Source: Candidatus Nomurabacteria bacterium (GTDB lineage Bacteria; Patescibacteriota; Minisyncoccia; Phycocordibacterales; UBA918). From it: 64,000 nt of DNA. The position numbers and the translations under genes are program-made. Below the pieces are notes generated by a model, which saw nothing but the letters and a program-made list of their open reading frames with translations, had not been told where the DNA came from and searched no databases. The stretch covers positions 462,763 through 526,762 of the forward strand of contig CP060229.1 in assembly GCA_023898585.1 (NCBI GenBank), read 5' to 3'. Below, one piece after another: positions 27,724 through 63,074 of the stretch; position 1 is the first letter of the stretch; every line of letters starts with the position of its first letter.

Positions 27724-29138
27724 ATTACCATCTTTACCCGAGGTAATAGTGATAATTTAATCTAAATCTGTTAGTCTCCAATGACCAACTTACTTATCCG
27801 GAACTGGTGCTTGACTTTAATTTCTTTTTCTATAGAATAGCCATCACGTATTTATGAGTTTTGAGAAAAGAACACTTTCGTAGCAAGAAATTTCGCAGAT
27901 TGCGATTTAACTTGCCGCGAGATTGCGGTTTTTTCTTTCAAAATTCAAAGGGATGCGGGTTGTTTGACAATTCCCATGACCGAGCGTCACGCGACCAAAT
28001 GTGCGAACACTTTGTGTTCATTATTTGGTTGCATGACCGAGCGAATGGGGATTGTATGGCTTGACCATACAATCGCATATTCATTAAGGACAGGTTGATA
28101 AGACCTGTCCCAAAAAGTCCTACGGCGACATTGTTTTCTTGTGAGCGAATGCGAACTAGAAAACGAGAAGTGCCTTGTGGTAAATCGACGTCGTCGTAGG
28201 CAACCCCCGCATAAAGCTAGAATCGACGCTAGCGCGGGGGAGTAGGTAAAAAAGTGTGTCGGGTTAAGAGTTTGTCCAATCGGACAGGTCTTTTCGTCCT
28301 CGACACGCTAAACACAAAGATCGTAGATTTTCCTAAGGAAAAATCTACGATCAGTCCGGAGTATGTATCTCCGGACAACACTCAAAAAATTGTGCAGCGG
28401 TGCACAGCGTTTTTGTGAGGAGCATGTCATCAGCGAAATCTGGCGACGGACCTTACTTTCGAGCGAGCGAGTGAAATGGAAGTAGCCATCAGGCCATTTA
28501 CATTTCCGAGCGAGCGAAGAAAGCAAGGAACGTTATACAGAAACGCAGTTGATGTATAACGTTCCTTACAGGAACAAAGGGTGTATGGTGGATGCCTTGG
28601 CTTCAAGAAGCGATGAAGGACGTGATATGGCTGCGATAAGTTTCGGGGAGGTGCCAAATAACCTTTGATCCGGAAATGTCCCAATGGGGAAACCCTACTA
28701 CTTTCAGTAGTAACCCTTGTATGAGGGGGCGTACCTAGGGAAGTGAAACATCTCAGTACCTAGAGGAATAGAAAGCAATAGACGGAAATTTCTTTTTGAG
28801 CGGATGCTTTGCATCAGCTCATTGAGCATGGTGCTTTGCGCCATTACGCTCAAGAAGAAGGTTCTTGCGATTCCCGGAGTAGCGGCGAGCGAAAGGGGAA
28901 TAGCCCAAATCCTGCACCTTTTAAGGTGCAGGAGGTTGTAGGGCGGAATCTGCATTTAGTTGCAGAGAGTTACAAAACAGATATATAGGAAAACACGTTG
29001 GGAAGCGTGACCCCAGTAGGTAATAGTCCTGTATTCGAAATGTATCTGACTCTCTTGGTTCCGTTCCTGAGTAGCGCGGGACATGAATAGCCCGTGTGAA
29101 TCCACCAGTACTAACTGGTAAGGCTAAATATTCTTGAA

Positions 29139-29184
<46 letters not shown>

Positions 29185-29949
29185 GGAGAGGGGAGTGAAA
29201 TAGATCTGAAACCATACATCTACAAGGAGTCGGACCCAGCTCCAGATTCGTAATCTGAATCAACGGGCTTTATAAGATCAACCGCAGTTGTTTTATAGAG
29301 CAAAGTTGTGAAAATCGTGAATCTGGAGCTGGGGACGGCGTGCCTATTGAAGAATGAGCCGGCGAGTGTATATCTATGCTTTGTCTAAGTGGCAATCCCA
29401 CGGAGGCACAGTGAAAGCGAGCGTGAATAGCGCGAATATAGCGTAGGTATACGACCCGAAGCGGGAAGAGCTTGCCATGAGCAGGGTGAAGCGACTGTAA
29501 TAGGTCGTGGAGGCCCGAACCGGTTGGCCGTACAAAACCATCGGATGACTTGTGGTAAGGAGTGAAAAGCTAATCGATTTCCGTAATAGCTGGTTCTCTC
29601 CGAAACAGCTTTAGGGTTGGCGTCGTGTGTTTCCTACGGGGGTAGAGCACTGGAAGGTCAAAATAGGGGGAAACTTCGTTTGACCTATCAAACTCCGAAT
29701 ACCGTTAGGCCACAGCACGGCAGTTAGACTACGGGGGAGAAGCTCCGTTGGTCAAAAGGGAAACAGCCCAGATCGCCAGTTAAGGTCCCAAAATATATGC
29801 TCAGTGCAAAATGAGGAGGTGAGGATTCACAAACAGTGAGGAGGTTGGCTTAGAAGCAGCCATCCTTTAAAGATAGCGTAATAGCTCACTCATCGAGAGT
29901 CCTTGCGCCGAAAATGATCGGGGCTCAAGCATATTACCGAAACTGCGGA

Positions 29950-30332
29950 TTCGTAGGCTTCATTTAGGAAAAGTTTATGTCCAAGGGGACAGTTTGATGG
30001 TCGTCAGAGTCCGCTCGCGCAGCGGAACAGCGTACGACCACAGCTGCCCACCAAGCATGCAAAAACAGTAAAGATGTCTCCTGAGGCGAGCGCCACCTGG
30101 CGCGTTAGTGACGGGCACTGCGCAGACTGTTAACATTGCATACTTTTCGTCGGGAGTGTTCGAAAGAACCCCCTTGGACTCCCGTTCTTTTACGTCGAGA
30201 CAATTTTGGTCCCCGGTAGCTTAGTTGGCAGAGTAGCTGAATGCAAATCAGTGAACACTGGTTCGACTACAGTCCGGGGAACCAAAATTGTCTCACGTAC
30301 CATTTCAAACAAGCGTTTGAATCCTAAATGAA
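29950..30332 (+). other. intervening sequence (about 345 nt) inserted in the apical loop of 23S helix 45, closed by a 20-bp stem (UUCGUAGGCUUCAUUUAGGA / UCCUAAAUGAAGCCUACGAG)
   Basis: Flanks align to E. coli H45 (GCGGCAGCGACGC..GCGUUGUUGGGUAGGGGAGCGU); the interior has no 23S homology. Confidence 0.7.
30210..30284 (+). ncRNA. tRNA-like cloverleaf (anticodon-loop GCA, encoded ACCA 3' end) embedded inside the helix-45 insertion, carried on a 21-bp extended stem
   Basis: UCCCCGG acceptor/CCGGGGA, D-arm GCUU..AGUUGGCAGAGU, anticodon stem GCUGA/UCAGU with loop AUGCAAA, T-loop UUCGACU but G53-A61 mismatch; flanked by GAGACAAUUUUGG / CCAAAAUUGUCUC. Confidence 0.45.
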
Positions 30333-30865
30333 GCCTACGAGTGGTAGGAGAGCGTCCATCTCTGCGATGAATCCAAGGCGGGAGCCGCGGTGGAGCGAGG
30401 TGGAGTGAGAATGCCGGCACAAGTAACCGCAAGGCAGGTGAGAACCCTGCCCGCCGAAATACCAAGGTTTCCTTTGCGATGGTGATCATCGAAGGGTTAG
30501 TCGGTCCTAAGGGAATCCCGAATGGGGGACCCGATGGAGAGCAGGTTAATATTCCTGCACACTGTTATGTTCCTATGGAGGGACGGAGCGTTGTACCCAA
30601 AGCTTCTTATTGGATTGGAGCTGGAGCTATGAGCGTGTTACTTAGGTAAATCCGGGTAGCAATAGCGCGAGTAGGGTCTGAATGTGAGCCTTCGGGTGAG
30701 CAAATAAGGGGAGCACGCTTCCGAGAAAAACTTCGTTTGGGTTAAGCATAATGGTTCCGTACCGCAAACCGACACAGGTGGTAGAGTCGAGAAGACTAAG
30801 GCGAACGAGTGAGAGGTCCTCAAGGAACTCGGCAAAATAGCGGCCGTAACTTCGGGATAAGGCCC

Positions 30866-31174
30866 GCCAGCCCTAGATTTGGGGTATGATAGTTGAATGC
30901 ACGCTGTGTACGTGATTCAAAACAATGAGACTAAAGAAGTCTATATTGGTCGTACTGCCAATCTCAAAACAAGACTGGTTGAACACAATTCGCGCGGTAA
31001 GAAAAGCACCACGCGCAATAGTGGCAGCTGGAAGTATATTTATGTTGAACTTTTTCGAAGTACTGATGATGCTATTGAGCGCGAAAAGAAGCTCAAAGCG
31101 CACGGTAGTGGTAAACAAAAGTTGATGTCACGACTTCGAAAAAGCTTGTTTTGAGCCCCAAATCTAGGGCTGGC
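30866..31174 (+). other. 23S helix (E. coli about 1710-1750 region) expanded by a 271-nt loop that consists almost exactly of a GIY-YIG ORF
   Basis: Stem GCCAGCCCUAGAUUUGGGG / CCCCAAAUCUAGGGCUGGC; the ORF starts 12 nt after the stem and stops 1 nt before it. Confidence 0.65.
30897..31154 (+). CDS. small GIY-YIG nuclease-domain protein encoded inside 23S rRNA
   Basis: VYVIQNNETKEVYIGRTANLKTRLVEHN (GIY..YIG, Arg, Glu); 85 aa; paralogue at 54231-54500. Confidence 0.6.
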   Translation: MHAVYVIQNNETKEVYIGRTANLKTRLVEHNSRGKKSTTRNSGSWKYIYVELFRSTDDAIEREKKLKAHGSGKQKLMSRLRKSLF

Positions 31175-31366
31175 CGCAGCGAAAGATTTCCTGCCGACTG
31201 TTTAACAAAAACACAGCTCTCTGCTAACACGAAAGTGGATGTATAGAGGGTGACGCCTGACCTATGCCGGAAGGTTAAGTACGGATGGTGATATGAGATT
31301 CGTCTTGTATTGCTGGGCTGTATAAGCCCCGGTAAATGTCAGCGATAACTATAATCGTTCTAAGGT

Positions 31367-31599
31367 CGAGTGCGTGATTTATTCGTGCATTCGACGGATT
31401 GGGACGATTGTAGAGTTAAATAGCCTAGCCATAGTTACCTTGCGACACAGAAATGTGGCGCATAATCCAAACCAAGCCGTCAAGAGACCAGATGCTTGGC
31501 ACCGCAGCACACGGATCATTGATCTGGGGTGGTGGTGAAGATAGAGTCCAATTGTGAAATGTCCCCGCTACGTTTGTGGTGGAGGAGAAGGAAAAATTG
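31367..31599 (+). other. 233-nt ORF-less intervening sequence at the conserved CUAAGGU|AGCGAAAUUCC site (E. coli about 1917); probable minimal group I intron
   Basis: Exons rejoin to CUAAGGU+AGCGUAUUUCCUUGUCGGGUAAGUUCCGAC; the insert follows a U and ends in G. Confidence 0.55.
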
Positions 31600-32202
31600 A
31601 GCGTATTTCCTTGTCGGGTAAGTTCCGACGTGCACGAATGGCGTAACGAGTGGGAAACTGTCTCGAGGACCTGCTCGGTGAAAATACAATCCCGGTAAAG
31701 ATGCCGGGTACCTGCAGTTAGACGAAAAGACCCCAGGAGCTTTACTGTAATTTCGTATTGGGGCTGTTGAGTTAATGCGTAGCATAGGAAGGAGACTTTG
31801 AAGCGAGCTTTCGGGTATCGTGGAGTCACCAGTGAAATACTTCCCTTTATTTTGGCAGTCTCTAACCGGTGTGGCAAAACCACATCGAGACAGTGCGTGA
31901 TAGGCAGTTTTAGTGGGGCGCTACCCTCCCAAATCGTAACGGAGGGGTCTCAAGGTTGGTTAGGCGCGAATGGAAACCGTGCCGATAGTGTAATGGCATA
32001 AACCAGCTTGACTGTGAGGAGTAGATTCCGAACAGATACGAAAGTAGAGCATAGTGAACCGATGGTTGGCTTTAGACGCCGCCGGAGATTACCCGATAAA
32101 AGTTACCCTGGGGATAACAGGCTAGTTGTGCCCAAGCGTCCATAGCGACGGCACAGTTCGGCACCTCGATGTCGGCTCATCTTATCCTGGGGCTGGAGCA
32201 AA

Positions 32203-33024
32203 CCATATCTGCTCTCCTTGCTGGAAACAGCAAGGTAATCGGTTGGTGGATTTTGTCTTTGGCATAATCCACCAACCGGACTGTAACAATGCGGTACCCT
32301 CCGCGGTACAGGAAACAAGCTCAAAACGGAGAAGGCTGACTCATGCGGTCTAGGGAAGACAAATGACCTGCAGTTTCGCAGGTCCCAGGTGTGCTACACT
32401 TGGAGTATGAGAGCTAATTCCGTAGGAAAGATGTGTTCTGAAGTCGATCTGGCATATGTTGCTGGTTTGGTTGATGGAGATGGCGCTATCATGGCGTGTA
32501 TCGAACCACACCAAGAAAAGAAGTTTCGGTTCAGAGTAAGGGTTGTTTTCAAAGTCACTCAAAAACACAAGGAAGACTTAATATTTCTTGAAAAATTGTT
32601 TGAGTGTGGCTTAATAAGACAAAACGGATCAACATACGATTGGATAGTGCGCGATCAACAATCGCTCGCTACCATACTTGGTATGTTACTCCCTTACTCC
32701 CGCTCGAAACAGCAGCAAATTAAGCTTGCGTTAGATATTCTTCATACTGAAATAGTAACCAAAGAAGACCTACTGCGAGTTGCCACATTGGCGGATGCAT
32801 TGTCACGGTTTAACGTTCGGTCCAACAACCGACGAAAAAACCATGTGACAATGATCCAAGAACACATTTCCTCTAACGACTGATCGCTACTGGTTGGCAG
32901 TAGCGTGAGATATACCCGCTTTGTGGGGTATCACACGGCTTGCACCTACGGTGCGTGTGGTGACACGCGTACTACGGTGATGGAATAGTCTGATCTATGC
33001 GGGAACGCATAGTTAACAGCAAAA
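32203..33024 (+). other. about 820-nt group I-type intron in the peptidyl-transferase region (GGGGCUG.AG | .AGGUCCCAAGGG), carrying a LAGLIDADG ORF
   Basis: Exons align to E. coli GGGGCUGAAGUAGGUCCCAAGGGUAUGGCUGUUCGCC; exact boundaries are ambiguous by ±3 nt (AGCAAA repeated at both junctions). Confidence 0.65.
32389..32883 (+). CDS. LAGLIDADG homing endonuclease (single-motif), intron-encoded
   Basis: DLAYVAGLVDGDGAIMA motif; 164 aa. Confidence 0.75.
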   Translation: MCYTWSMRANSVGKMCSEVDLAYVAGLVDGDGAIMACIEPHQEKKFRFRVRVVFKVTQKHKEDLIFLEKLFECGLIRQNGSTYDWIVRDQQSLATILGMLLPYSRSKQQQIKLALDILHTEIVTKEDLLRVATLADALSRFNVRSNNRRKNHVTMIQEHISSND

Positions 33025-33068
33025 TGAGGTCCCAAGGGTTTGGCTGTTCGCCAATTAAAAAGATACGC

Positions 33069-33102
<34 letters not shown>

Positions 33103-33150
33103 CTCCTATCTACTGCAGGCGTCGATTCTTGAGGAGAGTTGTCCGTAGTA

Positions 33151-33938
33151 AGTAATTGCTACTTCAAGGAGAGATCCTTGATGACAATACGGCTTATAAC
33201 GGTGAAGTCTAAGTCAAATCTGGTTTTAGAGAATGATTGACCAAGGTCCAGTGTCAATCAAACTCGCTTGAGGACCGGAATCTTGATATGATAATACCGT
33301 GGGAAGTCGATCCGACACAGATTTAGCATACATTGCGGGTTTCCTTGATGGAGACGGAAGCATTATGTTGCAGGTAAAGTCGCGTAGCGATACAAATCGC
33401 GGAGTGCGCTTTATGGCAACTATCTGCCTCTATCAAGATACTCGTCACGAGAGTCCACTGTTGTGGATGCGTGAAATCTTTGGTATCGGGTACATATCAC
33501 ACCGTAAGGATAGTATTACCGAACTGAGAGTTAATGGTTTTGCTTCGGTAAGAAGAATACTCATTTTGCTCCAGCCTTACATTAGGTTCAAACAAGTACA
33601 AGTAACAGCATTGTTGAATGCTTGCGAAATACTTGGTGGCCGCAGGGTTGGTGATCTGAATGAAGTCCAGCTGAAAGAGTTGGTTGATCTGGTTTTTTTG
33701 ATCAGGGAAAACAACTATAAAAGCAGGCAGACGCTTACCAAAGAAACATTGCTACTGCGTTTGGGTTTGACCCCGTAACGACTTGCACTGAAATATGTGC
33801 AGACCGCATGTTGATGAATCATTTCTTTGAAAATGACTGACCATGCAGGTAACATGCCGTCGCCCTCGCCCTTTGCCTTTCAAGGTGCAGGGACGGGTGA
33901 AGATATAGTCTGTGCTCCTAGAAATAGGGGAATCCACG
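33151..33938 (+). other. about 788-nt group I-type intron inserted within the sarcin-ricin loop (…UCCGUAGUA | CGAGAGGACC…), carrying a LAGLIDADG ORF
   Basis: Joined exons give UUGAGGAGAGUUGUCCGUAGUACGAGAGGACCCGG, which aligns to E. coli CUGAGGGGGGCUGCUCCUAGUACGAGAGGACCGG; the intron ends in G. Confidence 0.6.
33299..33778 (+). CDS. LAGLIDADG homing endonuclease (single-motif), intron-encoded
   Basis: DLAYIAGFLDGDGSIML motif; 159 aa. Confidence 0.75.
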   Translation: MGSRSDTDLAYIAGFLDGDGSIMLQVKSRSDTNRGVRFMATICLYQDTRHESPLLWMREIFGIGYISHRKDSITELRVNGFASVRRILILLQPYIRFKQVQVTALLNACEILGGRRVGDLNEVQLKELVDLVFLIRENNYKSRQTLTKETLLLRLGLTP

Positions 33939-34017
33939 ACGAGAGGACCCGGATGAACGAACCTCTGGTCTATCGGCTGTCACGCCAGTGGCATTGCCGA
34001 GTAGCTATGTTCGGAAC

Positions 34018-34050
<33 letters not shown>

Positions 34051-34430
34051 GCCTCCAAGATAAGGAATCATTAAGTCCCCAGAGAGATGATCTGGTTGAT
34101 AGGCACTAGGTAGAAGTACAGCAATGTATGGAGCCGAGGTGTACTAATAGGACGTAGTTTCCTGTAAGGAACGTTGTACATCAACTGAAACTTACATAAT
34201 TGTCGTACTGCCGCGTTGTGCATCGGTAAAATAATTCTCTCTGGACGTCTAGTCCCGTTCGAATTATTTTCCTCGCACGCCTTGCATTACAAACAATTTT
34301 GAGAATTTTCAGCCGGTTGTATAACTTTTTACAAACGTTGACACCGTTGCACAATTTTTTGAGAAGAGGTGTTTTACCTACAAAAACAAACCAACTTACC
34401 ACTTTGTCTTCAACATAAGGGAGACAAGTA

Positions 34431-35371: not shown

Positions 35372-35484
35372 TGCAAGTTGGTGATTTGGGGAGAGGGGTA
35401 CACCCGTTCTCATTCCGAACACGGAAGTAAAGTCTCTTACCACCGATGGTACTGCGCAAGCGGAAGAGTAGGTAGTCGCCAACT
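35372..35484 (+). rRNA. rrf: 5S rRNA
   Basis: Helix I CAAGUUGGUG / CGCCAACUUG; CCGAACACGGAAGUAAAG; GAGUAGGUAGUCGCC. Confidence 0.85.
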
Positions 35485-35919: not shown

Positions 35920-38900
35920 ATGTTACGTATCAAACAGTTTATTGGCTTATTCATAGTGACGTTATTTGTGGTTCCGGTTATCTCCTTGGCTCAGAGCGAA
36001 ACTGGCGCGTCCCCGGAGCAAGGATTAGAGGAAATGCCACCAGCTCCTGAGCTATACGAAGGACCAACAGCCAGACCGGCTTTTCTCGATGATTTAGAGA
36101 CTCCGGAAGACTACGACGCTCTCACTCCGGAACAAAAAGCCGAAGCCGAAGCCTACTTCATGTCTGTTTCTGATGTGATCATCATCGCTACCACTGAACT
36201 ATATAACGCAAAGATCAATAGTCAGAACAACAACCAAGTCGAGATCATATTCGATATAGCGAATGGGAAAGGCGCACAGCCCGGAGTTAAGTATCGAGTT
36301 GACTTGATGAAAGAAACAGCAGATGGTCAAGAGATAGTTGATACTAAGGTCTTCGACGAAGTATTGAGTATTCGTGAAAATGAAACCATCAACAAAAGTA
36401 TTACCTATTCGGCTCCCAAATATCTCTCAGGCGAATACACCATCTTCATGACCTTAGAAAATAACAGTGGCTTAACCTTGGCTCTTGGTCCGGTTGAAGG
36501 CACGGTTACTCTAACCGGCGATGGATCCGGCTACGTGGAGCTGAAAGAAAGTAGCTGTCACCTAACCATACCGGGAGATACGACCGAATACCTACCGGCC
36601 CAAGGAGTTGATATTACCTCGGAAGAATCGCTGAACGTAACCTGCGAGATCACCCACACTTTCACTGAAGCAACCACTGTATTTCCCGTCATGGCTATCT
36701 TTGAGCGAAGTCTAACCGGAAAGCTGATACGTGGAGCAGAAACTCTAACCGAAAACGAAGTCACACTAAAGCCAAACACACCAGCTACCATCACTCTACC
36801 TCTCTCTCTAGCTACCGCTCCACAATCCTACGACACCACTCTGTCCTTTGTGATTTCCGGTGGACAAAGTGTTTCTCAAACCATCCCTCTGCACTACGTG
36901 ATACGCGGTCTTAGCGGTACCATTCAGAATGTCCTGCTCGATAAAGACTTTTATAAAAAGGGAGAAAACGCGGAAATATCTTTCACCTGGACGGGAAGCG
37001 CTGATGGTTTTCCTGACTCACGTTATGGTGAAGAAAGCGAAGTGGAAGAACCCATGGCGGTAGTATCAGTGGTTGATGGCAAAGGGGTAGCTTGTTCCGA
37101 TGAAAAGAGGGTTCCTTTGGAAGACATACAGACGAGCATTTCTCTACCTATTACGTCCGATTGTTTAAATCCGGTAGTTTCCGCTTTTCTCTACGACGGA
37201 CAGACTATGCTTGATGAAAAGACATACGACATCAACTCTAAAGAAGGAGCTGTCACTGTCGAACCACCAGTAACAGAAGAACCTAAAAGCCAACCATCGC
37301 CTTTGATTATCGTCACCATAATCATCTTAATCCTGATTATCGCTACCGTCCTTTATATTATAAAGAAAAAACAAAACGGTGATGATAGTAATGATTCGGT
37401 CAATGATGACTTGGGTGGCACCGGCAAAGGTGTACCAACCGCCATGTTGTTCTTCATTGCCACTGCTATAGTCGGAGCTGGGTTGTTTGTACCGAATGAT
37501 AGGGAGGTGGAGGCGATGACGTATACACTTAAGTGTGCGACTGCTAAAGATCATAAATGTGCCAAAATAAGGAGAAGTTCCGCGACCACCATCAGTCTTA
37601 ATAAGGGTGGTAATTCTCCCAAATACAATCAGGGTGACACAATAACAGCTAGTGCTTCGGTTAATATGTGGCAGTGTGCCAATGGTGGTTATTATCTAGC
37701 TGTTTACGCCAGAACAGCTGGATCATCATTTAAAAAACTAGCCTCTTCGTATTATGGTAGCGATGCCGGTTCCGCGAATTTCAAAGCTCCGAATGTATCA
37801 GGTTCCAACCACGTTACTTTCTGGTTCCATACAGCCCATGAAAATGGAAGTGAGAATGAATACTACAACTATCCCTACACCGTCCTTCCTCCACCAAATA
37901 CCGATCCAACCTTCAGCTTCACTCCGAAATCAGGAAACTCACACTTGGCCGGTGAATCGCAGAAATTTACCGCCAAAGGTAATGATGGTGACGGAGATGA
38001 TTTAAAATACAAAGTCGAATGGAACGATGGCGATCAATGGTTGCCTGCTTCTGGTCGTGTCGCTCAAGGTACTTCACTGGAAGCTTCTAAAATATGGAAT
38101 TCTGGAGGTAACTATTCCTACCGAGCCCGTGCAGTAGATACCAGTAACGCTGTTTCCGGTTGGGTAAACGGGAGTATTGAAATCTGCTCACAATACCAAT
38201 TCTGGAACAGCACTAACTGTGAGAATTATGTCTGTCAGGGCACACTCCCTACTCTTACCGCCTTCCACGGGAGTGCTGGTACAAACCTAACAAACGGTAC
38301 AACTCCAATTTCATACACCTCCACCCCAACCGGAGCCAAATGTGAATACGGCTGTACTACTGGCTCTAATCGAGATCTTGTTAACAATAAATGTATAGGA
38401 GTCACTCTCAATCCTTCAGATTGTCAGATTCCTATTGGTGATAGTGTTTGCAAAGCTAATGTCTCTTGGGCAACATCTAACATTATCAGTCCACAAATTC
38501 TCCTTGACGGTGGATCATTTTCTTCCTCTCCAAATGGAACGAATGTTCAAACTCCGGACTTAGATTTTGGTAATCATAAAGTAGAAATTGAGGATGATGG
38601 GGGAATGGTGCAGATAGTCAAAGAATTCGAAGCTAGGTGTGTTGGAGGCGCAGCTTGGAATATCTTGACAACTCCACCGCAATGCACCGTAGCTCTCCAA
38701 CCTCTGGAACCGGGTGTTAAGATTGAAGCGAACCCTAGTATTGTTCGTAAAGGAGACACAGCGGTAATAATAGTTGATGTTACCTCAGACGCTGACGTAA
38801 CTTGTGAGTTGATCAATGCTCAAAACAATGCGGTTCCAATTAAACACATCGCCAATACACCTACTCACAAAGAAATAACTACCAAAAACCTTACCTCAGC

Positions 38901-39003
38901 TCAGATAGTACAATTAACTTGTTCCTTTGACGCCTTTCCAAGTTTGGGAGAAGTTGTTAAACAAACTAGAATAGAAATTATCCCGGTTCCGGAAGAGATA
39001 TAG
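35920..39003 (+). CDS. large (1027 aa) cell-surface protein: signal peptide, extracellular domain, central TM segment, Cys-rich C-terminal beta region
   Basis: MLRIKQFIGLFIVTLFVVPVISLAQS signal; PLIIVTIIILILIIATVLYIIKKKQ TM; many Cys pairs later. Confidence 0.55.
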   Translation: MLRIKQFIGLFIVTLFVVPVISLAQSETGASPEQGLEEMPPAPELYEGPTARPAFLDDLETPEDYDALTPEQKAEAEAYFMSVSDVIIIATTELYNAKINSQNNNQVEIIFDIANGKGAQPGVKYRVDLMKETADGQEIVDTKVFDEVLSIRENETINKSITYSAPKYLSGEYTIFMTLENNSGLTLALGPVEGTVTLTGDGSGYVELKESSCHLTIPGDTTEYLPAQGVDITSEESLNVTCEITHTFTEATTVFPVMAIFERSLTGKLIRGAETLTENEVTLKPNTPATITLPLSLATAPQSYDTTLSFVISGGQSVSQTIPLHYVIRGLSGTIQNVLLDKDFYKKGENAEISFTWTGSADGFPDSRYGEESEVEEPMAVVSVVDGKGVACSDEKRVPLEDIQTSISLPITSDCLNPVVSAFLYDGQTMLDEKTYDINSKEGAVTVEPPVTEEPKSQPSPLIIVTIIILILIIATVLYIIKKKQNGDDSNDSVNDDLGGTGKGVPTAMLFFIATAIVGAGLFVPNDREVEAMTYTLKCATAKDHKCAKIRRSSATTISLNKGGNSPKYNQGDTITASASVNMWQCANGGYYLAVYARTAGSSFKKLASSYYGSDAGSANFKAPNVSGSNHVTFWFHTAHENGSENEYYNYPYTVLPPPNTDPTFSFTPKSGNSHLAGESQKFTAKGNDGDGDDLKYKVEWNDGDQWLPASGRVAQGTSLEASKIWNSGGNYSYRARAVDTSNAVSGWVNGSIEICSQYQFWNSTNCENYVCQGTLPTLTAFHGSAGTNLTNGTTPISYTSTPTGAKCEYGCTTGSNRDLVNNKCIGVTLNPSDCQIPIGDSVCKANVSWATSNIISPQILLDGGSFSSSPNGTNVQTPDLDFGNHKVEIEDDGGMVQIVKEFEARCVGGAAWNILTTPPQCTVALQPLEPGVKIEANPSIVRKGDTAVIIVDVTSDADVTCELINAQNNAVPIKHIANTPTHKEITTKNLTSAQIVQLTCSFDAFPSLGEVVKQTRIEIIPVPEEI

Positions 39004-60415: not shown

Positions 60416-62009
<1,594 letters not shown>

Positions 62010-62224
62010 TGGACACGTTGTCGGTGTTTGGTAACAAATGCCATATGACGACTAATTGGTCGATGTTATATGCCTCAATTGAGCATATAACGAGAGATAA
62101 TACTCATTCTCTGAAATGGTATTGGACTCCAGGGAAAGACCGGACCAAAGGATAAGGCAAAAGAGCTTGTGAACTCAATTTCTCGCTATTTTGTTGAGCT
62201 GAAGTGTGAGAGGTTTTATGTAAA

Positions 62225-62270
62225 AACAAACAAAGAAAACCATCGGCATGCCGATGGTTTTCTTTGTTTG
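62225..62270. terminator. bidirectional hairpin AAACAAAGAAAACCAUCGGCAUGCCGAUGGUUUUCUUUGUUU
   Basis: Perfect 19-bp stem between the 16S 3' flank and the reverse-strand gene. Confidence 0.75.
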
Positions 62271-62292
62271 TACGCTCGACTGAATCACTTTT

Positions 62293-62721
62293 TTACTTAC
62301 ACTTACAAATAGTAACTCCCATAACATCTTCACATACAGAAGTTTGGCCGGGGCACGTAGGATTGTTGAATGCCCTTTCTTCTATATAGTCTGGAGTCGG
62401 AGAGTTTTTTCCGCCCAACCCGAAACTGCTACTTAATAAATTAATTATTCCCCAAAATATGACCATCATAACAAAGGCAAATACTCCATAAACCGCCAAA
62501 GCTTTCGCCTTGTCCCGGCCTTCCTCATTGGTACTGCCAAAAACAAAAAAACGAATAACGTTAATGATAAAGAAGAGAAAGGCGACCGCCATTAAAAACG
62601 GTATCACAACATCGCTAAGGAATTTCACGAAACTGACTAAAAAAGTCTGTAGACTATCAGTTGCCCCCAAGGCGGGAAGAGGAGCTAATATTAAAAGCAA
62701 AACGAGATAGTTTATTTTCAT
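62293..62721 (-). CDS. small secreted two-TM protein, VirB2/TrbC-pilin-like or competence-pilin-like (tentative)
   Basis: Signal peptide MKINYLVLLLILAPLPALGA, two hydrophobic helices, Cys-rich C-terminal tail. Confidence 0.35.
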   Translation of the reverse strand: MKINYLVLLLILAPLPALGATDSLQTFLVSFVKFLSDVVIPFLMAVAFLFFIINVIRFFVFGSTNEEGRDKAKALAVYGVFAFVMMVIFWGIINLLSSSFGLGGKNSPTPDYIEERAFNNPTCPGQTSVCEDVMGVTICKCK

Positions 62722-62966
62722 ATTTTTTATTATACCGTATATAATGTTGTGAAAAGAAGTTTATAAGTGTAATTTCGCTTCCATATATTTAAAAAATTTG
62801 TTATAGTTTTGGCCACTGTTAGAGTCCGTTCGGGCTGAAAAACTTAAACTTCTTTAAGTTTTTCCCGGTCGCGTAGCGGATCACCGATGTTTACGAGGTG
62901 ATAGGGTCGGCTAGAGCTTATCCTAACTTCTTACAGAAGCTGTAAATTTTTCCGATATTTTGTTTG

Positions 62967-63040
62967 TTTGATTTGTCCGTGCTTAGCTCAGTTGGCTAGA
63001 GCATTCGACTGATACTCGAAAGGCCCTAGGTTCGAATCCT
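62967..63040 (+). tRNA. tRNA-Ile (anticodon GAU), flanked by an about 30-bp extended processing stem
   Basis: Acceptor CCGUGCU/AGCACGG, U8, D-arm GCUC-AGUUGGCUA-GAGC, anticodon loop CUGAUAC, T-arm CUAGG-UUCGAAU-CCUAG; flanks GAUAUUUUGUUUGUUUGAUUUGUCCGUGC / GCACGGACAAAUCACGCAAACAGCAAAAUAUC. Confidence 0.85.
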
Positions 63041-63074
63041 AGAGCACGGACAAATCACGCAAACAGCAAAATAT

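Follow-up and report, generated by a model that had tools for sequence, protein, structure and literature searches.

Site, fold and coding content of a predicted self-splicing, LAGLIDADG-encoding group I intron in the sarcin–ricin loop of a Patescibacteria 23S rRNA gene

The closest described counterparts of the element presented here are insertions in the 23S rRNA genes of the candidate phyla radiation (CPR). In a survey of 348 CPR 23S genes by Tsurumaki, Sato, Saito and Kanai (J Bacteriol 2024; PMC11270868), LAGLIDADG_1 open reading frames (ORFs) were found to cluster at positions 1917, 1931, 1952, 2593, 2604 and 2657, corresponding to the sites 23IS6–8 and 23IS12–14. At position 2657 (23IS14) such ORFs together with group I matches are frequent in CPR, and group I introns at this site are unreported in other bacteria (PMC11270868). 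The same study, citing Brown et al., states that the CPR rRNA insertions are removed from transcripts, and it describes I-ShaI, a CPR LAGLIDADG enzyme from site 23IS7 that cuts its own insertion site and forms dimers (PMC11270868). A second group of comparable elements, the L2593 introns of chloroplast and cyanobacterial large-subunit (LSU) rDNA, carries a short P2, a P7.1/P7.2 extension of about 65 nt and a short P5 (PMC1995217). Here we characterize an insert of 789 nt in the 23S rRNA gene of a Candidatus Nomurabacteria bacterium, contained in a 64,000-nt stretch of contig CP060229.1 (hereafter the window, to which all positions refer). The insertion site, a covarying fold, an intact ORF that retains its catalytic residues and the recurrence of this arrangement in many genomes directly support the reading that it is a group I intron inside the sarcin–ricin loop (SRL). 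We consider it very probable that this intron has an IA-like layout and is self-splicing and homing, where splicing and mobility are deduced from the sequence.

The 23S rRNA gene runs on the + strand, as do all features of the insert given below, from position 28565 to about 34150 and is split between U2656 and A2657 (E. coli numbering, Ec), that is, inside the SRL, whose E. coli sequence AGUACGAGAGGACC begins at Ec 2654. BLASTN against E. coli rrlH aligned Ec 2534-2657 with 33027-33150 and Ec 2657-2782 with 33939-34064. The exon sequence around the insert, ...UUGUCCGUAGU(A) / (A)CGAGAGGACC, reads as it was written in the initial annotation of this DNA, which had proposed a LAGLIDADG-encoding intron inside the SRL, and both this BLASTN result and the ORF discussed below bear that proposal out. 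Upstream of the insert the exon reads ...GAGUUGUCCGUAGU-A at 33136-33150 and downstream A-CGAGAGGACCCGGAUG from 33939; a single A can be assigned to either side, and 33150-33938 or 33151-33939 both yield the correct exon. The boundaries proposed initially, 33151-33938, were right about the site and wrong by one nucleotide about the edges: they count this A twice and would give an exon UAGUAACGAG. We chose 33150-33938 because it is the only choice that fits group I rules, with a U at the last exon position (U33149) and a G at the intron end (G33938). We refer to the site as L2656. It corresponds to 23IS14, position '2657', published for CPR (PMC11270868).

The exons themselves agree with this placement. 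The 5′ exon end at 33140-33149 comprises the 5′ strand of helix 95 and the SRL residues A2654-U2656 (UGUCCGUAGU), U33149 being U2656 according to the BLASTN alignment to rrlH and the sequence, and the 3′ exon starts at 33939-33955 with ACGAGAGGACC (A2657-C2667 of the SRL) and the 3′ strand of helix 95. In this helix G33145 (Ec 2652) pairs with C33950 (Ec 2668), a compensatory G-C where E. coli has C-G, and this supports the assignment of the exons. When 33027-33149 is joined to 33939-34150, as predicted for the ligated exons, the product aligns over 333 nt with the intron-less metagenomic 23S gene L086 at 92.5% identity and with zero gaps. The uninterrupted 25-mer GTCCGTAGTACGAGAGGACCCGGAT is present in 36 metagenome contigs, and the presumed intron-less target sequence is TTGTCCGTAGTACGAGAGGACCCGG. 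An intact SRL can arise only if the insert is excised and the exons are ligated. The earlier claim that the insertion splits the loop is supported, and the joined exons match intron-less genes without gaps. The match to the Rfam LSU model stops already at 32289, because the large insertions break up the gene.

The same arrangement was found in related loci. We fetched 80 of them, located the ORF in each together with the 5′ exon end before it and the closest ACGAGAGGACC after it, and could parse both junctions in 77. In all 77 the ORF lies within an insert (median 795 nt) flanked by ...YUAGU and ACGAGAGGACC. This insert ends in G in 77/77, at a position that was not constrained by the search, whereas the exon-terminal U, likewise present in 77/77, was required by the search pattern. 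Nearly all of the 80 loci are labelled as metagenome-assembled genomes of Patescibacteria/CPR, e.g. Kaiserbacteria and Paceibacterota. Three contigs labelled Elusimicrobiota (L009), Nanoarchaeota (L030) and Mycoplasmatales (L052) bear the same SRL intron and endonuclease; their 23S exons are of bacterial type and 73-88% identical to the window, and they are probably mis-binned Patescibacteria, with transfer as the alternative. Profiles of both intron halves (nhmmer) matched other introns of the fetched loci weakly at best and gave zero matches to the other insertions of the window.

The insert (33150-33938) can be folded into a group I ribozyme of IA-like layout, as suggested by its P7.1/P7.2 extension; the subgroup is assigned by resemblance only and leaves IA1, IA2 and IA3 unspecified. 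P1 (33145-33162) is formed by exon GUAGU at 33145-33149 and the internal guide GCUAC at 33158-33162. It contains the wobble pair U33149.G33158 at the 5′ splice site, which is UG in all 24 aligned sequences; the pairs 33146-33149/33158-33161 are paired in 24/24 and are invariant, without covariation, and the fifth pair, G33145-C33162, was found in the window sequence only. P2 (33164-33181) is a hairpin of 7 bp with a GAGA tetraloop and shows double compensatory changes at all 7 pairs. The 5′ strand of P3 (ACGGC, 33189-33193) pairs with GCCGU at 33856-33860; 3/5 pairs covary, 100% of the alignment cells are paired and the helix is recovered by RNAalifold. P4 joins ACGGUG (33199-33204) to UACCGU (33295-33300), the latter reaching into the first two bases of the GUG start codon of the ORF, and is followed by J4/5 (AA, 33205-33206), with J5/4 (AA, 33293-33294) on the opposite side. 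Between them an extended P5 arm (33207-33292) is built from P5 (33207-09/33290-92), P5a (33213-16/33284-87), P5b (33219-24/33274-79), P5c (33229-31/33263-65) and the hairpin P5d (33234-41/33253-60) with a conserved GGUCC loop, and covariation was observed in each of these five helices. P6 consists of GGG (33301-03) and CCC (33772-74), such that the whole ORF forms the P6 loop.

The 3′ part of the fold follows the ORF. The 5′ strand of P7 lies in the R-like element UAACGACU (33779-33783), where G33780-U33783 pair with A33907-C33910; P7 is paired in 24/24 sequences, invariant, and forms a pseudoknot with P3. Between P7 and the 3′ strand of P3 an extension of about 66 nt (33784-33850) contains the P7.1 hairpin (33784-88/33797-801) and P7.2 (33803-10/33842-50), the latter enclosing P7.2a (33819-24/33831-36), and all three helices covary. 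P8 (33861-33899) has an outer stem of 5 bp (33861-65/33895-99) with 4/5 pairs covarying and 100% of cells paired, and a variable interior. J8/7 (AAGAUAU) and the 3′ strand of P7 make up the S-like element AAGAUAUAGUCUG (33900-33912), which aligns with 'AAGAUAUAGUCu' of the Rfam Intron_gpI consensus and is nearly invariant among the relatives. The last helices (33912-33937) are P9.0, formed by G33912-U33913 with A33936-C33937, and the enclosed P9 (33915-33930; CUCCUA GAAA UAGGGG), whose GAAA hairpin matches the Rfam consensus and covaries at 3/6 pairs. P9.0 covaries at both pairs (GC/AU/GU at the first and UA/CG/UG at the second). This covariation links the bases before the terminal guanosine (omega-G, 33938) to those after P7 and is hard to explain unless G33938 is delivered to the P7 pocket.

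The fold was tested on a MAFFT alignment of 24 intron cores from which the ORF interior had been removed and which was not fitted to a structure. With the P1-P9 model including the P3/P7 pseudoknot, 95.5% of the cells were paired, compared with 80.4 ± 0.5% in shuffled alignments, a measure that is inflated by the partial derivation of the structure from the same relatives that were used for testing; this does not apply to the counts of compensatory changes. Such changes occurred at 48 of 76 pairs, with 293 cells versus 83.5 ± 8.1 in the shuffles (none of 500 reached 293). As a control, the 3′ partners were slid by 1-3 columns, upon which the fraction of paired cells was 32-46% and the covariation score fell from 0.46 to 0.04-0.11. 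The helices that covary in the hand-made model are P2, P3, P5a, P5b, P5d, P7.1, P7.2, P7.2a, P8, P9.0 and P9. Run without this model, RNAalifold recovered P1, P2, P3, P4, P5-P5d, P6, P7.1, P7.2, P7.2a, P8, P9.0 and P9, adding P5 (33207-09/33290-92) and P5c (33229-31/33263-65), both with compensatory changes.

Further points have to be held against a functional group I intron, besides the shared origin of model and test set. P1, P6 and P7 are invariant, and are hence compatible with the fold rather than proven by covariation. P10, a pairing of the guide region with the 3′ exon, was sought by eye and not found. The GUG start of the ORF is buried in P4, and no obvious ribosome-binding site was seen. 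Finally, the Rfam model Intron_gpI (RF00028) gave 20.9 bits, short of its gathering score of 50, and 27-31 bits for the same intron in the 12 related loci scanned. We attribute the low score to the 480-nt ORF, which splits the ribozyme so that only the 3′ part (J8/7-P7'-P9) is credibly aligned; the shortfall is a limit of detection and not a defining biological feature.

Two attempts at the structure were abandoned. An initial pairing for P4/P5 (CGGU to ACCG, and the GGUCC loop to GGACC of the intron itself) was dropped, as covariation favours P4 at 33199-204/33295-300 and P5b at 33219-24/33274-79; four of the 77 loci have GGUCC instead of the intron GGACC, and the loop shows no compensating change. 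An exhaustive search for column pairs that covary gave too much noise to be usable.

The fold also bears on the question whether the insert is spliced at all. RNase III or a comparable enzyme could instead excise it as an intervening sequence with no subsequent ligation, and the 23S rRNA would then consist of two fragments separated within the SRL. Bacteria with fragmented 23S rRNAs are known (PMC11270868). The same gene contains two insertions flanked by stems of the kind expected for such processing, at 29951-69/30322-40 and around a GIY-YIG ORF in the helix-63 region (both described below). At the SRL, no inverted repeat joins 33150 and 33938, the longest inverted repeats being internal to the insert, and the full covarying group I core, the terminal G in 77/77 loci and the covarying P9.0 speak against this route; the group I features are under selection. 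Cleavage by alpha-sarcin inactivates ribosomes, and by analogy a nick in the SRL should be lethal. We therefore regard excision without ligation as extremely improbable, and retain the group I intron.

The initial annotation had further pointed to a degenerate copy of the 5′ exon end, located 20 nt before the intron 3′ end, and had interpreted it as a possible homing scar or guide-pairing element. The string, CUGUGCUCCUAG, is indeed present at 33910-33921, and it ends 17 nt, not 20 nt, before the intron end. As a copy it does not hold up: the ungapped match with the exon 12-mer is 7/12, which is at chance level, since four 12-mers of the intron match the exon 12-mer at 7/12 or better and about 11 are expected by chance. 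The segment comprises the end of P7', then P9.0 and the 5′ strand of P9, and it aligns with the 3′-terminal part of the Rfam consensus for group I introns, in keeping with P9. Its UAG part changes together with the hairpin partner among the relatives (UA/UA, UU/AG, UG/CA, GA/UC and others) and does not follow the variation of the exon. The 5′ strand of the intron segment stays GYGCUCC in the relatives, while the 5′ exon shows at least 40 different 7-mer forms, and the exon counterparts of the fixed intron CUCC vary (GUCCC, GUUUC, GACCC, GCCCC). A copy of the exon's own sequence, moreover, is not its complement, and so cannot pair with the exon or act as a guide. In favour of a relic or pairing element one may count that GCUCC occurs in both exon and intron in 7/77 related loci, and that the 9-mer UGCUCCUAG inside the segment presumably equals the 5′ strand of helix 95 in E. 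coli. Taken together, we give the exon-copy interpretation next to no credence; the segment is an ordinary P9 hairpin with a GNRA loop (CUCCUA-GAAA-UAGGGG).

The ORF within the P6 loop (33299-33778) starts with GUG, ends with UAA and is predicted to encode a LAGLIDADG homing endonuclease of 159 aa. It matches Pfam PF00961 (LAGLIDADG_1) with an E-value of 6.4e-10 and 40.3 bits, compared with a cut-off of 23.1. A profile built from the ORF and 25 homologs matched I-CreI, I-MsoI and I-CvuI in the PDB at E-values of 1e-13 to 5e-32; these three are single-motif homodimeric enzymes. The motif IAGFLDGDGS aligns with LAGFVDGDGS and its catalytic acidic residue D19 is invariant, as are Q46 and K98, which align with Q47 and K98 of I-CreI. 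The symmetry of the SRL target was considered as evidence for a homodimer and discarded, since the palindrome (GTCC/GGAC, 4 of 10-11 symmetric positions, partly counted by hand) is too weak for use.

Both ends of the ORF are part of the ribozyme. P4 includes two bases of the start codon, G and U, and in L052, the sole aligned relative with an AUG start, the pair C33200-G33299 is changed to U-A. P6 is made from codons 2 and 158-159, and P7 follows the stop codon directly. In 52 ORFs of equal length, codons 1-3 and 157-160 are 98-100% conserved at their third positions, compared with a mean of 0.60 for interior codons that encode a conserved amino acid, which fits their roles in P4', P6 and J6/7. 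Ribozyme constraint likewise explains the invariant protein ends, MGS... and ...LGLTP. Ribozyme folding and ORF translation are presumably mutually exclusive.

This tight coupling of protein and RNA is one reason to ask whether the intron could splice alone. Alternatively, it would depend on the LAGLIDADG protein as a maturase or on a host factor. Some LAGLIDADG proteins do act as maturases (PMC11270868). A dependence of this kind would also be in line with the short P1 (4-5 bp) and with the P10 that was not found. The core is complete and carries stabilising elements, namely the GAGA loop of P2, the GAAA loop of P9, P7.1/P7.2 and the long P5 arm, all of which argue for an autonomous ribozyme. 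Enzymes of the I-CreI type are not known to act as maturases. We consider assisted splicing unlikely, and self-splicing remains the preferred reading.

A related question is whether the intron is still mobile. It may have become a fixed remnant in which the ribozyme splices and the endonuclease is inactive or has run out of targets. The homing-cycle model predicts such decay of the endonuclease after fixation (PMC11270868). In 75 loci, the identity of the endonuclease tracked that of the host exons weakly (Spearman 0.29, p 0.011), a correlation that can be read either way: vertical descent combined with transfer would account for it, and neither is proven. The ORF is of full length, its catalytic residues are invariant and the same length has been kept across many lineages: we found 2201 relatives in the protein database at E <= 1e-5, the 120 best homologs are 60-78% identical (two truncated gene calls, both at 100%, lie outside this range), and almost all are exactly 159 aa long. 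When one genome per species was scanned, at least 542 species-representative genomes encoded a relative of the ORF. Metagenomes contain intron-less 23S genes that share this SRL stem variant, and targets are therefore available. The conservation of the endonuclease together with these empty sites suggests that the enzyme may still be active; a fixed, non-mobile intron appears doubtful to us, although conceivable.

On these grounds we propose the following course for a mobile group I intron at the SRL. After transcription the intron would fold into a P4-P6 domain with the long P5 arm and a P3-P9 domain with the P7.1/P7.2 extension, and P1 would arise from the pairing of GCUAC, the guide, to exon GUAGU. 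Free guanosine, once bound in P7, would attack after U33149; P9.0 would then bring G33938 into the same pocket, and exon ligation would restore AGUACGAGAGGACC. The 159-aa single-motif protein of the I-CreI type would act as a homodimer and cut intron-less 23S rDNA at the SRL-coding sequence, and repair of the cut would copy the intron in (homing). Self-splicing, the activity of the endonuclease and its target, and mobility are in this scheme predictions from sequence comparison.

A more far-reaching idea concerns the timing of splicing. The large subunit cannot activate EF-Tu or EF-G until U2656 is joined to A2657, and the split of the SRL might accordingly go beyond neutral parasitism: guanosine-dependent splicing there could license newly made ribosomes in these bacteria with small genomes, with the conserved GGUCC loop of P5d (33245-33249) holding GGACC of the 3′ exon (33945-33949) in place of P10. 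The loop is complementary to GGACC; the exon GGACC is invariant, and covariation is uninformative on a pairing of loop and exon. The P5 arm also contains GAGGACC (33270-33276), which is found in 66 of 72 readable relatives and has the same seven bases as the 3′ half of the SRL in the 3′ exon (33943-33949). In the window this agreement is compatible with chance, as a 7-mer in common with the exon junction also arises in 29% of shuffles. We regard such a licensing function as very improbable.

The SRL intron is the last of five insertions in this 23S gene. Upstream of it, BLASTN against rrlH aligned Ec 10-1163 with 28574-29948, Ec 1234-1708 with 30391-30867, Ec 1773-1931 with 31197-31366 and Ec 1932-2532 with 31600-32198. 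The insertion at helix 45 (29951-30340) is closed by a perfect 19-bp stem (29951-69/30322-40) and contains on the same strand a tRNA-Cys(GCA)-like gene (30210-30284; ARAGORN, and Rfam tRNA with 50.5 bits and an E-value of 7e-8). On inspection, the tRNA-like gene has an encoded CCA end and discriminator A, and it sits on a further stem of 13 bp. If a tRNA were released from this intervening sequence by tRNA processing, the rRNA would be fragmented there. No tRNA was found in the 23S gene of L086, the closest intron-less relative. The helix-63 region (30868-31196) is replaced by an 18-bp stem (CCAGCCCUAGAUUUGGGG / CCCCAAAUCUAGGGCUGG) whose loop encloses an 85-aa GIY-YIG ORF (30897-31154; Pfam E-value 6e-17), and this insertion resembles an intervening sequence more than a group I intron. 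An insertion of 233 nt without ORF (31367-31599) lies exactly at the classical L1931 site (AAGGU | ... UUG | AGCG), with a U before it and a G at its end; it gave no Rfam group I match at E <= 0.1. The fourth insertion, 828 nt in length (32199-33026), is located near Ec 2533 (GCUGGAG(C) | ... AAAAUG | AGGUCCC) and carries a second LAGLIDADG_1 ORF (32389-32883; 164 aa, Pfam E-value 5e-8). The base before this insert may be C, not U, and the position Ec 2533 is absent from the LAGLIDADG_1 sites named in PMC11270868.

The rRNA genes of the window are unlinked: the 5S gene (35377-35484) lies with the 23S gene, and the 16S gene (60416-62009) about 25 kb downstream, followed by tRNA-Ile(GAU), both within the region 60416-63051. 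The separate rRNA loci, the numerous 23S insertions and the Patescibacteria labels of the closest related loci all suggest a CPR host. In three relatives a tRNA-like gene was observed between 23S and 5S (L002 3488-3566, L059 3482-3558, L003 3597-3765; Rfam tRNA 46-56 bits), for which ARAGORN reported odd anticodon loops in L002 ('gtta') and L059 ('ac') and found no tRNA in L003. Just downstream of the 5S gene, an ORF of 1027 aa (35920-39003) gave a weak hint of a PKD domain (E-value 0.006, below the Pfam cut-off); by reading, its translation has a signal-like segment at the N-terminus and a hydrophobic stretch in the middle.

Compared with the L2593 introns (Chlamydomonas Cr.LSU with I-CreI, and Synechococcus), the window intron likewise has a short P2 and the P7.1/P7.2 extension, here of about 66 nt, and its endonuclease is similar to I-CreI in size and in having a single motif (profile E-value about 1e-14). 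It differs from them by its location 63 nt downstream, in helix 95 and not in the peptidyl-transferase region, with a different target sequence, and by a long P5 arm where the L2593 introns have a short P5. The ORF of the L2593 introns is, we assume, also placed in the P6 loop. The td intron of phage T4 (IA2) presumably has similar core strings (UAACGACU ... GAUAUAGUCUG), and we take it to share the position of P7.1/P7.2 between P7 and P3' as well as an ORF in the P6 loop. It differs in its protein-coding host gene, its GIY-YIG endonuclease (I-TevI) and other peripheral elements.

That an apparently mobile intron can persist in the SRL, a highly conserved and functionally critical rRNA sequence that binds elongation factors, would be possible only because splicing restores the loop exactly. 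The presumed target of the endonuclease occurs in the LSU rDNA of nearly every organism and may be of interest for meganuclease engineering. For annotation, standard rRNA and group I models mishandle this locus; the structure, the covarying P9.0 and the overlap of the ORF ends with P4 and P6 could be used for a dedicated model. Literature searches for an L2656/L2657 intron, or for SRL together with group I intron, yielded no paper discussing an SRL intron.

The closest counterpart is the 23IS14 class (PMC11270868), which is found in the same gene, at the same position (with the one-base ambiguity, U2656|A2657) and with the same LAGLIDADG_1 family, and the hosts of the relatives analysed here are Patescibacteria as well. 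The accessible part of that paper lists the site in its survey and makes no mention of the SRL, of a secondary structure or of an endonuclease test for the 2657 intron. We see no essential difference between that class and the window intron, which agrees with it in site, ORF and CPR host. The class of element is thus already published (23IS14, 2024) and its current understanding is unchanged; what is added here are the exact boundaries, a tested secondary structure, the covariation of P9.0 and the overlap of coding sequence and ribozyme.

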